Virus record (IMG/VR): IMGVR_UViG_2711768067_000002
Location: 1-4,968 of that record
DNA: 4,968 bases
Strand: one strand, 5' to 3'
DNA from: a virus
Taxonomy: Duplodnaviria; Heunggongvirae; Uroviricota; Caudoviricetes
This document shows, piece after piece, positions 1 through 4,968 of the stretch. The translations under genes and the position numbers were made by a program. The notes under the pieces are model-generated. The model was not told the DNA's origin. It made no database searches and saw nothing but the letters and a program-made list of their open reading frames with translations. Each line of letters begins with the position of its first letter. The first letter of the stretch is position 1.

Positions 1-98
1 CCACGGGAATATCTGCGGCAGTGGGCCAGTGATGGGGTAAGTGATAACAGGTGTCTGGAAATATAGGGGCAAATCCAGTATTTTTTGATGTTTGACAT
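1..98 (-). CDS. Possible 5' end of a leftward ORF running off the window edge (start codon at 98..96)
   Basis: Minus-strand ATG at 98..96 preceded by GAGGA about 9 nt upstream; open to the window edge (MSNIKKYWICPYISRHLLSLTPSLAHCRRYSR...). A second frame from the ATG at 106..104 is also open, so the frame is uncertain. Too short and truncated to name. Confidence 0.3.
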   Translation of the reverse strand, partial: MSNIKKYWICPYISRHLLSLTPSLAHCRRYSR

Positions 99-116
99 CT
101 ATTCATATCCTCACAG

Positions 117-144
117 ATAAAAAATCGCCCTCACATTGGAGGGC
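117..144 (-). terminator. Candidate intrinsic terminator downstream of ral
   Basis: Minus strand reads GCCCTC-CAATGT-GAGGGC (6 bp GC-rich stem, 6 nt loop; plus 127..144) followed by GATTTTTTAT (plus 117..126). Lies downstream of the ral stop on the pL transcript. Confidence 0.45.
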
Positions 145-280
145 AAAGAAGATTTCCAATAATCAGAACAAGTCAGCTCCTGTTTAGTTACGAGCGACAT
201 TGCTCCGTGTATTCACTCGTTGGAATGAATACACAGTGCAGTGTTTATTCTGTTATTTATGCCAAAAATAAAGGCCACTA

Positions 281-481
281 TCAGGCAGCTTTGTTGTTCT
301 GTTTACCAAGTTCTCTGGCAATCATTGCCGTCGTTCGTATTGCCCATTTATCGACATATTTCCCATCTTCCATTACAGGAAACATTTCTTCAGGCTTAAC
401 CATGCATTTCGATTGCAGCTTGCATCCATTGCATCGCTTGAATTGTCCACACCATTGATTTTTATCAATAGTCGTAGTCAT
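281..481 (-). CDS. ral: Restriction alleviation protein Ral (66 aa)
   Basis: 66 aa ORF MTTTIDKNQWCGQFKRCNGCKL... matches the lambda Ral sequence as I recall it, with the same length and the same position left of N on the pL strand. AGGA lies about 13 nt upstream of the ATG. Confidence 0.85.
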   Translation of the reverse strand: MTTTIDKNQWCGQFKRCNGCKLQSKCMVKPEEMFPVMEDGKYVDKWAIRTTAMIARELGKQNNKAA

Positions 482-551
482 ACGGATAGTCCTGGTATTG
501 TTCCATCACATCCTGAGGATGCTCTTCGAACTCTTCAAATTCTTCTTCCAT
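465..551 (-). CDS. Small acidic ORF (28 aa), orf28-like, overlapping the ral start by 17 nt
   Basis: Translation of the minus strand from ATG at 551..549 gives MEEEFEEFEEHPQDVMEQYQDYPYDYDY then TGA (plus 465..467). Length and the 17 nt overlap with ral match the lambda orf28 arrangement as recalled. Not in the ORF track because it is below the length cutoff. Confidence 0.5.
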   Translation of the reverse strand: MEEEFEEFEEHPQDVMEQYQDYPYDYDY

Positions 552-603
552 ATATCACCTTAAATAGTGGATTGCGGTAGTAAAGATTGTGCCTGTCTTT
601 TAA

Positions 604-1501
<898 letters not shown>

Positions 1502-1597
1502 CTGGATTCTCCTGTCAGTTAGCTTTGAGTAACGCGCCGTGATGCTTATCCCCACGGTTGCTGTCTTGCAGCTGCATTTCGCGCTACTCAAAGCTTT

Positions 1598-1642
1598 CTG
1601 CTTTGAATGCTGCCCTTCTTCAGGGCTAAATTTTTAAGAGCC
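1598..1642 (-). promoter_or_regulatory. nutL: nutL site (boxA-like plus boxB hairpin)
   Basis: Minus strand reads GGCTCTTAA-AAATTTA-GCCCTGAAGAAGGGC-AGCATTCAAAGCAG; boxB GCCCTGAAGAAGGGC is plus 1612..1626. The boxA-like element begins with G rather than the canonical C of CGCTCTTA. Confidence 0.75.
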
Positions 1643-1682
1643 TCACCTTCAATGGTGGTTAGTGCGTCCTGCTGACGGGCTA

Positions 1683-1745
1683 AGTATCACCGCTAGTGGT
1701 ATTTGTGTCAACACCGCTAGAGATATTTTATCACCGCAAATGGTT
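1683..1745 (-). promoter_or_regulatory. pL promoter with operators oL1, oL2, oL3
   Basis: Three 17 bp repressor-type sites: tatcaccgctagtggta (1685..1701), caacaccgctagagata (1709..1725), tatcaccgcaaatggtt (1729..1745). On the minus strand, -35 TTGACA (plus 1706..1711), a 17 nt spacer, and -10 GATACT (plus 1683..1688). Confidence 0.85.
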
Positions 1746-1900
1746 ATCTGTATGTTTTTTATATGGATTTATTTTTTCGAGTGAGTGTATTGCCTCGGCG
1801 ATGTAAGGAGAGATCAGAATTGCGTTGTTTAGTGAGTTGTATCTATTTATTTTCCAATAAATACAATTGGTTATGTGTTTTTAGGTGGGGCGATCGTGAG

Positions 1901-1928
1901 GCAAAGAAAAACCGGCGCTGAGGCCGGG
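1901..1928 (-). terminator. Intrinsic terminator ending the cI-cassette transcript (tImm-like)
   Basis: Minus strand CCGGCCTCAGCGCCGG hairpin (plus 1912..1927) followed by TTTTTCTTTGCC (plus 1901..1910), immediately after the stop of the 206 aa ORF (1929..1931). Confidence 0.6.
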
Positions 1929-2549
1929 TTAATGCTGGGGAGTGATTTTTTTGTTGTCTGTTGGCTGGGTATTTTGTGGCGGCGCTTGCAAAGTGGAAGG
2001 CTGTTGCAAAGGTGCGTGGTCTGACTTTAAAGCTGATACCAGCCCGGGAATCGCAACTATTACAGCGATAATGACACTAAAAATGGCTAATCGTATAGAA
2101 ATACCCGACTGAACACCACTAATTGCGGTATTAACCCCTGTTATTTGTCCTTGAATTCCTTCGAATCTCCCATTAATTGCTTTTAAATCGCCAGCAGCGC
2201 TATCCATTTTTCCATCGATCTTGGACGATAGAGAGCTTATGGCCGCATTAAGTGATGCAAATTGGACATTAACGCTTTCACGAGATAGAGCCATGTCAGC
2301 CCTAATGGAAGAAGCAATAGACTCCATCTCTGCTTTATTAGCAGCTAAGCGAGCATCAAGTTCCTCTCTGCTGATCGTTCCCACTTCTTCCTCCGTTTGT
2401 GGCGGTTTTATGTAATTATTTTGCACCTTGGTGGGAGAATTATCAAATTCAGCCTCAAAATCGGAACCGCCAACAACCTTCAACCTCCGGCTTTCAGATA
2501 TGTTGGTGTCTTGCTTTCCATGATTATTTAAATTGCTGTCGTCACTCAT
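1929..2549 (-). CDS. Hypothetical 206 aa protein with a polar N-terminus, a predicted helical/coiled region, one C-terminal transmembrane helix and a Pro/Gln-rich tail; distal gene of the cassette in the rexB slot
   Basis: ATG at 2549..2547 overlaps the upstream ORF's TGA in an ATGA arrangement (translational coupling). Hydrophobic stretch RLAIFSVIIAVIVAIPGLVSAL near the C-terminus; small-residue-rich repeats (INGRFEGIQGQITGVNTAISGVQSGIS) precede it. No resemblance to RexB (144 aa, multi-pass) as recalled. Confidence 0.75.
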   Translation of the reverse strand: MSDDSNLNNHGKQDTNISESRRLKVVGGSDFEAEFDNSPTKVQNNYIKPPQTEEEVGTISREELDARLAANKAEMESIASSIRADMALSRESVNVQFASLNAAISSLSSKIDGKMDSAAGDLKAINGRFEGIQGQITGVNTAISGVQSGISIRLAIFSVIIAVIVAIPGLVSALKSDHAPLQQPSTLQAPPQNTQPTDNKKITPQH

Positions 2550-2980
2550 AATAGCTCTACGGTGAAAAATGATTCATTTTTATGAAGTTCATTTTTAGGG
2601 TCTTCATTATCTTGCAATCTCCCTATAACACTATACAGCCCTTTAGCTGGGACCCTAATTTCTTTCAATGTTACTATTACCTGTCCGCCAACCCCTGTTT
2701 CAAAATGGCTATCTTTCGTATCGATGAAAAGTGAAACTGATTCCGAAGAGCCGTCAGGGAATTGAATTTCCTCACCTTTTTTTATAATTAGGTGCGCGGG
2801 GATTACCATAATACCCAAATTATATCTTGAATTTGGTTTCAACCCGATCATACCAACCCTGAAATCAATTGATAGCCGCGCAGGAAATTCATTGCATGTA
2901 AAATTAAGCGTCGGTTGGTTGGGTTCTTCGCTGCTATCAAATGGGGTTATAAAAGATATTCTTTCTAAATTAAGTGCCAT
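2546..2980 (-). CDS. Hypothetical ~144 aa soluble protein; proximal gene of the cassette in the rexA slot
   Basis: Preferred start is ATG at 2980..2978 with AGGAG 5 nt upstream (minus strand AGGAGAATTTATG), giving MALNLERISFITPFDSS.... The ORF-track start (GTG 3034 / ATG 3031 overlapping the cI stop) lacks a convincing SD but is not excluded. No transmembrane segment, no recognisable catalytic motif, no resemblance to RexA (279 aa) as recalled. Confidence 0.7.
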   Translation of the reverse strand: MALNLERISFITPFDSSEEPNQPTLNFTCNEFPARLSIDFRVGMIGLKPNSRYNLGIMVIPAHLIIKKGEEIQFPDGSSESVSLFIDTKDSHFETGVGGQVIVTLKEIRVPAKGLYSVIGRLQDNEDPKNELHKNESFFTVELL

Positions 2981-3030
2981 AAATTCTCCTGCATCGCTGT
3001 ATGCTCTACGAGCATCTCGGCGACTTATCA

Positions 3031-3747
<717 letters not shown>

Positions 3748-3748
3748 T

Positions 3749-3820
3749 TAAATCTATCACCGCAAGGGATAAATATCTAACACCGTGCGTGTTGACTGTT
3801 TTACCTCTAGCGGTGATAAT
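3749..3820. promoter_or_regulatory. Right operator/promoter switch: oR3, oR2, oR1 with divergent pRM and pR
   Basis: oR3 tatcaccgcaagggata (3755..3771), oR2 taacaccgtgcgtgttg (3778..3794), oR1 tacctctagcggtgata (3802..3818). pR -35 TTGACT (3792..3797), 17 nt spacer, -10 GATAAT (3815..3820). pRM on the minus strand: -10 GATTTA (plus 3749..3754), -35 TAGATA (plus 3774..3779). Confidence 0.9.
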
Positions 3821-3835
3821 AATTGCATGTACTAA

Positions 3836-4045
<210 letters not shown>

Positions 4046-4052
4046 ATAACAC

Positions 4053-4084
4053 CGCTCTTACACATCACAGCCCTGAAAAAGGGC
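4053..4084 (+). promoter_or_regulatory. nutR: nutR site (boxA CGCTCTTAC plus boxB hairpin)
   Basis: cgctcttac at 4053..4061 and gccctgaaaaagggc at 4070..4084, immediately downstream of cro. Confidence 0.8.
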
Positions 4085-4160
4085 ATCAAATTAAACCACA
4101 CCTATGGTGTATGCATTTATTTGCATACATTCAATCAATTGTTATCTAAGGAAATACTTA
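4085..4160 (+). terminator. Probable Rho-dependent tR1 region between nutR and cII
   Basis: Assigned by position from established lambda organisation only. A Rho-dependent terminator has no obligatory hairpin, so the sequence cannot confirm it; a short inverted repeat gtatgc...gcatac is present. Confidence 0.35.
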
Positions 4161-4186
4161 CATATGGTTCGTGCAAACAAACGCAA
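4140..4186 (-). promoter_or_regulatory. pRE-like promoter with CII-binding TTGC-N6-TTGC direct repeat
   Basis: Minus strand TTGCGTTTGTTTGC (plus 4173..4186) overlaps the cII 5' codons, as in lambda pRE; a -10-like TAAGTA lies upstream of it on the plus axis. Confidence 0.6.
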
Positions 4187-4457
4187 CGAGGCTCTACGAA
4201 TCGAGAGTGCGTTGCTTAACAAAATCGCAATGCTTGGAACTGAGAAGACAGCGGAAGCTGTGGGAGTTGATAAGTCGCAGATCAGCAGGTGGAAGAGGGA
4301 TTGGATTCCAAAGTTCTCAATGCTGCTTGCTGTTCTTGAATGGGGTGTCGTTGACGACGACATGGCTCGATTGGCACGACAAGTTGCTTCGATTCTCACC
4401 AATAAAAAACGCCCGGCGGCAACCGAGCGTTCTGAACAAATCCAGATGGAATTCTGA
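4164..4457 (+). CDS. cII: Transcriptional activator CII (97 aa)
   Basis: MVRANKRNEALRIESALLNKIAMLGTEKTAEAVGVDKSQISRWKRDWIPKFSMLLAVLEWGVVDDDMARLARQVASILTNKKRPAATERSEQIQMEF, near-identical to lambda CII. The ORF-track entry starts further upstream; the real start is the ATG at 4164. Confidence 0.95.
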   Translation: MVRANKRNEALRIESALLNKIAMLGTEKTAEAVGVDKSQISRWKRDWIPKFSMLLAVLEWGVVDDDMARLARQVASILTNKKRPAATERSEQIQMEF

Positions 4458-4489
4458 GGTCATTACTGGATCAATCCACAGGAGTAATT

Positions 4490-4968
4490 ATGACAAATAC
4501 AGCAAAAATACTCAACTTCGGCAGAGGTAACTTTGCCGAACAGGAGCGTAATGTGGCAGATCTCGATGATGGTTACGCCAGACTATCAAATATGCTGCTT
4601 GAGGCTTATTCAGGCGCAGATCTGACCAAGCGACAGTTTAAAGTGCTGCTTGCCATTCTGCGTAAAACCTATGGGTGGAATAAACCAATGGACAGAATCA
4701 CCGATTCTCAACTTAGCGAGATTACAAAGTTACCTGTCAAACGGTGCAATGAAGCCAAGTTAGAACTCGTCAGAATGAATATTATCAAGCAGCAAGGCGG
4801 CATGTTTGGACCAAATAAAAACATCTCAGAATGGTGTATCCCTCAAAACGAGGGAAAATCCCCTAAAACGAGGGATAAAACATCCCTCAAATTGGGGGAT
4901 TGCTATCCCTCAAAACAGGGGGACACAAAAGACACTATTACAAAAGAAAAAAGAAAAGATTATTCGTC
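4490..4968 (+). CDS. O: Replication initiator O, N-terminal part (truncated by window end)
   Basis: ATG at 4490 with GGAG upstream; translation MTNTAKILNFGRGNFAEQERNVADLDDGYARLSNMLLEAYSGADLTKRQFKVLLAILRKTYGWNKPMDRITDSQLSEITKLPVKRCNEAKLELVRMNIIKQQGGMFGPNKNISEWCIPQNEGKSPKTRDK... matches lambda O; open to the window edge. Confidence 0.9.
   Translation, partial: MTNTAKILNFGRGNFAEQERNVADLDDGYARLSNMLLEAYSGADLTKRQFKVLLAILRKTYGWNKPMDRITDSQLSEITKLPVKRCNEAKLELVRMNIIKQQGGMFGPNKNISEWCIPQNEGKSPKTRDKTSLKLGDCYPSKQGDTKDTITKEKRKDYS
4838..4923. repeat. ori iterons: four ~18-19 bp O-protein binding repeats inside the O reading frame
   Basis: Four tandem copies of ATCCCTCAAAACGAGGGA-type repeats with internal dyad symmetry (approx. 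4838..4856, 4859..4876, 4882..4899, 4905..4923), followed by an A/T-rich stretch (4925 onward) cut by the window end. Confidence 0.85.

Follow-up and report, generated by a model that had tools for sequence, protein, structure and literature searches.

What does the interval between the repressor gene cI and the terminator tImm of a lambdoid prophage carry in place of rexA and rexB, and what is that slot selected for? RexAB, whose mechanism remains under debate, is the founding example of abortive infection encoded by a prophage. The question is raised by a 4,968-nucleotide stretch of caudoviral DNA (IMG/VR record IMGVR_UViG_2711768067_000002, positions 1 to 4,968; the whole stretch is hereafter the window), which is the immunity region of a lambdoid prophage with lambda immunity. 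Here the slot is filled by an unrelated two-gene cassette, genes A and B, as had been claimed in an earlier reading of the letters alone (the sequence-only reading). It is very probable that A and B form a real, repressor-linked, lysogen-expressed module of a partner and a membrane protein. We propose, with a rough probability of one in two, that the module serves phage exclusion. As a natural lambda-immunity allele in which rexAB is swapped from stop codon to stop codon, the locus offers an isogenic system for asking what the slot is selected for.

The cassette and its expression signals

Comparison with lambda by BLASTN located the cassette between two blocks of homology. Window positions 1589-1931, carrying nutL, oL/pL and tImm, correspond to lambda 35496-35827 with 88% identity and end on the rexB stop codon. 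Positions 3030-4968 correspond to lambda 37226-39164, start at the cI stop codon and take in cI, oR, cro, cII and O, with an identity of 97.5% as against the 88% of the oL/pL-to-tImm segment. Since both blocks end at stop codons, the segment between them is a clean stop-codon-to-stop-codon swap of rexB-rexA. The lambda-like flanks are retained, with cI, oR and pRM on one side and the tImm terminator and pL on the other, and the breakpoints agree with the placement of the cassette in the sequence-only reading. The insert holds two open reading frames on the minus strand, A followed by B, resulting in the following arrangement.

1902..1927, minus strand: intrinsic terminator of the tImm type, stem CCGGC/GCCGG and TTTTTCTTTG, ending the presumed cI-A-B transcript
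1929..2549, minus strand: gene B, 206 residues, predicted tail-anchored coiled-coil membrane protein (RefSeq WP_024233432.1, hypothetical; PHROG 5820, unknown function)
1932-2024, minus strand: Pro/Gln-rich tail of B, about 31-34 residues following the transmembrane helix
1932-3029: substituted segment of 1098 base pairs, replacing lambda 35828-37225 (rexB, rexA and the cI-rexA spacer), from the BLASTN breakpoints
2025..2093, minus strand: B residues 153-175, single transmembrane helix (19-residue Kyte-Doolittle maximum 2.7)
2133..2369, minus strand: B residues 61-139, long coiled-coil helix with a glycine-rich GxxxG stretch at its end, from AlphaFold2 and the alignment
2373..2549, minus strand: B residues 1-59, variable N-terminal region with an LKVVGGSDF motif, co-varying with the partner gene; putative docking site for A
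2546..2980, minus strand: gene A, 144 residues, soluble, predicted all-beta, tentatively an immunoglobulin (Ig)-like beta-sandwich (RefSeq WP_001207141.1, hypothetical; PHROG 5893, unknown function)
2981..3030, minus strand: 50-nucleotide leader from the cI stop to the start of A, with an AGGAG ribosome-binding site; moves with the cassette
3031..3744, minus strand: cI repressor, 237 residues, Pfam matches to HTH_3 and Peptidase_S24, lambda immunity type
3751..3820: oR1-oR3 with divergent pRM (minus strand) and pR (plus strand), annotation transferred from EF120458 with an offset of +479

Purifying selection acts on both genes. Compared with homologues of 60-80% protein identity, non-synonymous differences (0.11-0.43) lie far below synonymous ones (0.70-0.87, saturated), indicating that A and B are real genes. 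Neither is akin to the lambda proteins that they replace, as the sequence-only reading had also held. BLASTP of A and B against RexA gave a best E value of 0.06 over 16 residues, no match to RexB was found at E<=100, and no Rex model of Pfam or PADLOC was matched. RexA/RexB homology was therefore rejected, and the A-B pair is not a member of the RexAB family. The profile searches for known families that the sequence-only reading had called for returned no Pfam or NCBIfam family above threshold for A, B, the alternative partners described below or the distant relatives, with sub-threshold matches or coiled-coil noise only.

The regulatory signals of lambda are conserved around the insert. The oR/pRM region differs from lambda by 5 mismatches over 111 aligned bases; oR3 and oR2 are identical, oR1 carries one change (G to A), and pR is located at 3792-3820. 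The leader is non-homologous to lambda, and the same leader (in the extended open frame, ...RRDARRAYSDAGEF) is conserved behind other repressors. A sequence scan found no promoter-like or terminator-like site within it. On the minus strand from 1600 to 3900, nothing resembling a terminator lies between cI and A, and the sole terminator-like site is CCGGCCTCAGCGCCGG followed by TTTTTCTTTG at 1927-1912, directly past the stop codon of B. This tImm is common to lambda from the stop codon onward and is annotated as Timm in phage HK542. An internal promoter of the pLit type was also considered and rejected, as the lone candidate inside B (2446-2418) is within chance expectation (3 sites found, 4.5 expected). 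Gene A has a strong Shine-Dalgarno sequence, whereas inspection of the start region of B revealed none. The stop codon of A overlaps the start of B in the minus-strand sequence ATGA at 2546-2549, suggesting translational coupling of B to A. Because the lambda signals are conserved and the leader holds neither promoter nor terminator, there are good grounds to conclude that cI, A and B would be made from one pRM transcript in lysogens. The sequence-only reading had proposed this co-transcription from the absence of a terminator after cI, the intrinsic terminator at the end and the ATGA overlap, and all three features are present.

The open frame of gene A runs over 2546-3034 and would encode 162 residues from a GTG overlapping the cI stop. 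This longer form was rejected. The AGGAG lies 5 nucleotides upstream of the ATG at 2980, the homologues begin at this ATG and the RefSeq entry agrees, so that it is almost certainly the start in use. Fixing this start is a small correction to the sequence-only reading, which had a soluble first protein of ~144 residues; A has no hydrophobic segment (19-residue Kyte-Doolittle maximum 1.0). Structure prediction with AlphaFold2, also suggested there, yielded an all-beta model of A with seven strands at low confidence, with a predicted local distance difference test (pLDDT) score of 48.8, and a long helix plus a transmembrane helix for B. The A-family profile weakly matches giant Ig-repeat proteins with He_PIG, Big_9 and PKD domains. 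Against the PDB it matches a pilin T-antigen (E=0.009, not significant), and DUF6941 is weakly matched by 4 of 22 family members (best E=0.002). An Ig-like beta-sandwich is thus a tentative assignment for A.

In the AlphaFold2 model of B, a disordered N-terminus is followed by a helix over residues 61-139 (pLDDT 76-90 over 61-110), a short break and a transmembrane helix at 150-174. The homologue alignment revealed a conserved motif in the coiled coil, SREELxAxLxxNKAE...GIQGQITGINTAISGIQSGIS, and the glycine-rich stretch GIQGQITGVNTAISGVQSGIS closes the long helix just ahead of the membrane segment. The sequence-only reading had described a 206-residue protein with a single C-terminal transmembrane helix. 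The single helix was found, but it lies near rather than at the C-terminus, with the Pro/Gln-rich tail behind it. The charge bias around the helix is weak. As B has no signal peptide and A is cytoplasmic, B is probably a tail-anchored inner-membrane protein whose coiled coil and N-terminal region lie on the cytoplasmic side. Most B homologues have QPIIIQVP just after the helix, presumably in the periplasm, and the window allele reads QPSTLQAPP there (alignment A2, columns about 280-292). In some alleles (L034-L036) the tail has a 6-residue deletion, giving a B of 200 residues.

Several genomes carry insertions of the insertion sequence IS1 that cut B before the transmembrane helix and leave A intact. 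In E. coli EM18-18-42 (NZ_CP063473.1; L065, 1868-2977; also H45 and H46), the open reading frame of B that remains after the IS1 insertion has 127 residues and no transmembrane helix. A cluster of truncated B of 128 residues (P0014) occurs on 53 contigs. The IS1 truncations and the 128-residue form are consistent with a cost of full-length B.

Repressor linkage and partner exchange in the wider family

The same cassette, with 98.3% DNA identity and in the same position, is present in phages HK542 and HK244. It is annotated in EF120458 and EF120457 (GenBank, 2007) as two hypothetical proteins between cI and 'Timm', under the names HK542c105/HK542c104 (HK542_035) and HK244 04/05. These records reportedly come from the 2007 work of Degnan and colleagues on wild phages with lambda immunity. 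The word novel in the sequence-only reading was therefore overstated. In addition, mosaic accessory genes, rexAB and bstA among them, are already known to concentrate between cI and N, a hotspot for which PMC8585504 and PMC7067206 cite Degnan et al. 2007. That the rex slot can hold other content is already known, and the architecture at the level of the family is the new part. The literature search found no paper naming these accessions, the PHROGs or DUF6941, with Degnan et al. 2007 and Brenes & Laub 2025 lying outside its coverage, and the DefensePredictor supplements do not list A or B.

Among 5426 complete E. coli genomes, 49 (about 1%) carry the cassette, which is frequent in E. coli isolated from poultry and humans. 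The exact A protein is found on at least 1000 contigs and the exact B protein on 774; a profile scan of genome contigs with the B alignment gave one locus. The spread extends to prophages of Klebsiella, Enterobacter, Citrobacter, Yersinia, Pectobacterium, Pantoea and Photorhabdus. In Citrobacter, Phytobacter, Enterobacter, Yersinia, Pectobacterium and Pantoea genomes, as well as in viral contigs of IMG/VR, the A and B homologues come immediately after a prophage repressor gene and share its strand. The repressors ahead of the pair are diverse and include the lambda cI type, several other types combining a helix-turn-helix with an S24 peptidase domain, and the Rac-type CI with YdaS/YdaT opposite. 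The E. coli cassette, 99% identical including the 50-nucleotide leader, stands behind at least five different repressors. The interval is best explained as a mobile two-gene 'moron' in the repressor operon of lambdoid prophages, which moves as a unit. Elsewhere the same lambda-type flanks enclose rexAB or other cargo. Such other cargo between the same cI and tImm flanks was observed in ev099, 2B8 (H5-H8), mEp332 (H9, H10) and E. coli (H54-H58); its types are an NYN-domain protein, accompanied in some E. coli records by a second hypothetical gene, a 'T2SS GspM containing' protein and a single hypothetical.

The modularity of the pair was analyzed over 53 B loci, with the relatedness of partners judged by hhalign profile comparison. 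The C-terminal module of B forms one similarity cluster over all 53 loci and comprises SREELxAxLxxNKAE, the coiled coil, GIQSGISTRLAIFGVIIAVVVA and usually the QPIIIQVP tail. The first 50-115 residues of B fall into clusters nested in those of the upstream gene, with an adjusted Rand index of 0.95-0.99 versus 0.0 for the C-terminal module. Five partner clusters were found upstream of B: the 143-residue A type, a 120-residue type with CxxC...CxxC, two types of ~97-101 residues and one of 92 residues. At least four of the five are mutually unrelated, the only possible relation being that between the 96-97-residue type and the 92-residue type (hhalign probability 69%). The partner gene overlaps B mostly by 4 nucleotides.

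The exchange was also seen from the side of gene A. Distant A homologues with 23-40% identity were collected at 22 non-redundant loci. At 20 of them the next open reading frame overlaps A or begins no more than 1 nucleotide past its stop, and the product has a coiled coil and a C-terminal transmembrane helix; the exceptions are one frameshifted copy and one contig end. This neighbour is often short (104-120 residues) with a GGGG linker, and the short tail-anchored relatives have almost no periplasmic tail. The soluble-plus-membrane pairing pointed out in the sequence-only reading is thus conserved over dozens of divergent loci. Because the partners are swapped against a constant B module and the neighbour of A is constant in type, what is conserved is the pairing of a small soluble protein with a coiled-coil membrane protein of the tail-anchored kind, both halves of which have been exchanged over evolution.

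Some variants of these loci were observed in addition. In one group of E. coli prophages, a second cargo gene lies in the same operon, encoding a 113-residue DUF3024 protein (Pfam E=3e-30) between a 234-residue repressor and A-B (L025, 2658-2999; also L020-L023, L026, L027 and L032). The 120-residue zinc-ribbon-type partner is near-identical in L048, L049 and L050/L051, with 3' frameshifts giving products of 112, 135 or 120 residues. These frameshifts move the junction with B from a 4-nucleotide overlap to +18 or -50 nucleotides. In Photorhabdus IMG/VR loci L099, L103 and L104, the tail-anchored partner ranges from 110 to 221 residues via an expanding 11-residue coiled-coil repeat, NKIQSVESSLS. 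The partner in Photorhabdus L101 is frameshifted to 71 residues, and the Photorhabdus loci adjoin tail-fibre-like genes and genes of the type VI secretion system (T6SS; IcmF).

Phage exclusion as a proposed function, and rival explanations

Based on the co-variation of the partner with the N-terminus of B and on the coupling of the two genes, we propose that A docks on the variable N-terminal region of B, over its first 50-60 residues. The constant module of coiled coil, glycine zipper and transmembrane helix would be the effector and the partner its regulator or sensor, either keeping B inactive or sensing the infecting phage. Upon infection, B would oligomerize and perturb the inner membrane by depolarization or leak, and the infection would be aborted. 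Such Rex-like exclusion is the most likely form of defence, with a block of DNA entry at the membrane as the main alternative within defence. The short relatives with almost no periplasmic tail suggest that the working parts are cytoplasmic and membrane-embedded, which makes an abortive mechanism that perturbs the membrane more likely than a block of DNA injection in the periplasm. Similar sensor-effector logic may be seen by analogy in Rex, in toxin-antitoxin-like abortive systems and in many other sensor-effector defences. The position is a further hint by analogy, as abortive-infection systems occupy this slot in lambda (rexAB) and in BTP1 (bstA).

More tentatively, the cassette may be one member of an unrecognised modular class of prophage immunity across Enterobacterales, with a constant membrane effector, interchangeable small sensors and linkage to the repressor promoter. 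The sensors of that class would be Ig-like, zinc-ribbon-like and of at least two other kinds, each docking on the matching N-terminal peptide of the effector, to make a possible analogue of RexAB built from different parts. One effector module with at least four unrelated partners and a co-varying N-terminus predicts a docking peptide and swappable sensors, which is directly testable. If the defence function is true, the cassette is a small, domain-free system missed by current defence finders; if it is not, repressor operons are still shown to carry conserved membrane-targeted cargo.

Weak similarities of the membrane segment offer leads to membrane damage. The glycine zipper and transmembrane segment of B align with the head by which the pore-forming toxin SmhB inserts into membranes (E=0.018, 58 residues, hydrophobic segment only), and B matches MakE below threshold (E=0.035, 13.1 bits versus a cut-off of 360). 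The short tail-anchored partners of the distant A homologues weakly match PHROG 937 'hemolysin' (5e-5) and PHROG 689 'holin' (3e-4). For XhlA (PF10779), the window B was unmatched and a Photorhabdus relative reached 17.9 bits versus a cut-off of 34.7. The likeness to the ClyA-family toxins SmhB and MakE and to XhlA-type hemolysin/holin-like proteins consists of a small-residue-rich helix followed by a hydrophobic helix, with weak local alignments. However, B is far smaller than the ClyA proteins, is without the rest of their fold and matches them below the curated thresholds throughout, and XhlA and holins function as parts of lysis cassettes rather than of repressor operons.

Comparison with characterized systems places the pair closest to Rex in arrangement. 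Both occupy the slot between the cI stop and tImm, both are presumably co-transcribed from pRM, and in both the soluble protein comes first and the membrane protein second. They share no sequence similarity. RexA has 279 residues, whereas A has 144 and is predicted to be all-beta; the 144 residues shared by RexB and A are a coincidence only. RexB is a multi-pass membrane protein, whereas B is predicted to have one transmembrane helix after a 150-residue cytoplasmic coiled coil, and no internal promoter like pLit is evident in the cassette. RexA binds DNA (PMC11077077), and a Pfam search detected no DNA-binding motif or domain in A or B. BstA of the Salmonella prophage BTP1 resembles the cassette in lying directly downstream of the prophage repressor with a presumably shared promoter, and in its occurrence in diverse Gram-negative prophages (PMC8585504). 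However, it is a single protein that localizes to phage DNA replication sites and has its own anti-BstA DNA element, shows no homology to A or B and lacks a membrane component. The mycobacteriophage Butters pair gp30/gp31, and Sbash gp30/gp31, which we take to be a further pair of that kind, are unrelated to A-B in proteins and hosts, a judgment on homology from negative family searches only, and the membrane partner of Butters is multi-pass. The likeness is one of concept, as PMC7542560 describes a prophage-expressed cytoplasmic and membrane pair near the immunity region that defends against heterotypic phages.

Several observations weigh against phage exclusion or against parts of it. The PADLOC-DB v2.0.0 models match none of A, B and the alternative partners, with coiled-coil noise only in the B relatives, and no PHROG annotated as superinfection exclusion (SieA/SieB/Imm/Cor type) was matched, the best being 5893 and 5820. 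Sequence-profile searches of the PDB gave nothing significant. The toxin, hemolysin and holin similarities are below curated thresholds and could reflect the composition of hydrophobic, glycine-rich segments. The low pLDDT of the A model leaves its Ig-like fold tentative, and the proposed A-B binding draws on co-variation and gene coupling. The Photorhabdus copies lie outside any repressor operon, beside tail-like and T6SS genes, so that linkage to a repressor, though a strong tendency, does not hold without exception. The searchable literature yielded no phenotype data; Brenes & Laub 2025, outside its coverage, may have tested the cassette.

Genes in this slot may also serve the lysis-lysogeny switch. 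A bias of the lambda switch is ascribed to RexA (bioRxiv 10.1101/2021.04.19.439022), and the Hex protein of phage 434 has an effect on cleavage of the 434 repressor, which it protects (PMC3564112). By analogy, A-B could serve the cycle of its own prophage, in the switch, in induction or in the timing of lysis, for instance as a membrane-tethered factor that sequesters and releases a regulator. The linkage of the pair to the repressor gene across many immunity types and the failure of PADLOC to find defence homology would fit such a role as well. Co-evolution with one repressor/operator set would then be expected, yet the identical cassette stands behind at least five unrelated repressors. It is also optional, as the other cargo between the same lambda-type flanks indicates, and neither protein has a DNA-binding motif, so that a role in the switch seems unlikely.

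The order of a small soluble protein and a putative effector, joined by a 4-nucleotide overlap, is equally that of a toxin-antitoxin-like stabilization module, in which A as the antitoxin and B as the membrane toxin would retain the prophage. The swapping of partners against a constant effector resembles antitoxin swapping, and the IS1 truncations strip B of its transmembrane helix and leave A intact. However, there is no DNA-binding domain for autoregulation and the cassette seems to have no promoter of its own, making this explanation quite improbable; many prophage modules of that type act as abortive infection anyway, and it therefore overlaps with phage exclusion. It is more improbable still that the cassette changes the envelope by lysogenic conversion with no bearing on phage, for instance in stress tolerance, in homeostasis of ribosomes or the membrane in the manner of tail-anchored ElaB/YqjD, or in host interaction. 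The tail-anchored coiled-coil architecture of B, the frequency of the cassette in poultry and human isolates and the lack of any function assigned in databases would agree with it, but no relation of B to DUF883/ElaB or another Pfam family was detected, and fast swapping of partners and N-termini is typical of conflict systems rather than housekeeping.

Other features of the window

The window also carries the genes listed below, and its positions 1178-1527 correspond to lambda 35037-35386, the N block (BLASTN). The RefSeq label for the cI product is LexA family protein.

281-481: ral
ends at 1178, minus strand: N
3845-4045: cro
4164-4457: cII
from 4490: O, start of the gene

The sieB slot of lambda, immediately to the left of N on the opposite strand, is likewise filled by an unrelated gene, at 682-1185 on the plus strand. 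Its 3' end overlaps the end of N, and homology to lambda begins only at 1178. The product has 167 residues (RefSeq WP_001278766.1, there 164 residues, hypothetical; PHROG 1244, unknown function). Its only match among the PADLOC models is a weak one, to PDC-M53B (E=0.012). The N-terminal stretch of the protein is hydrophobic and rich in Gly and Ala; the protein also has a coiled coil and, at the C-terminus, a zinc-ribbon-like CxxC...CxxC motif.

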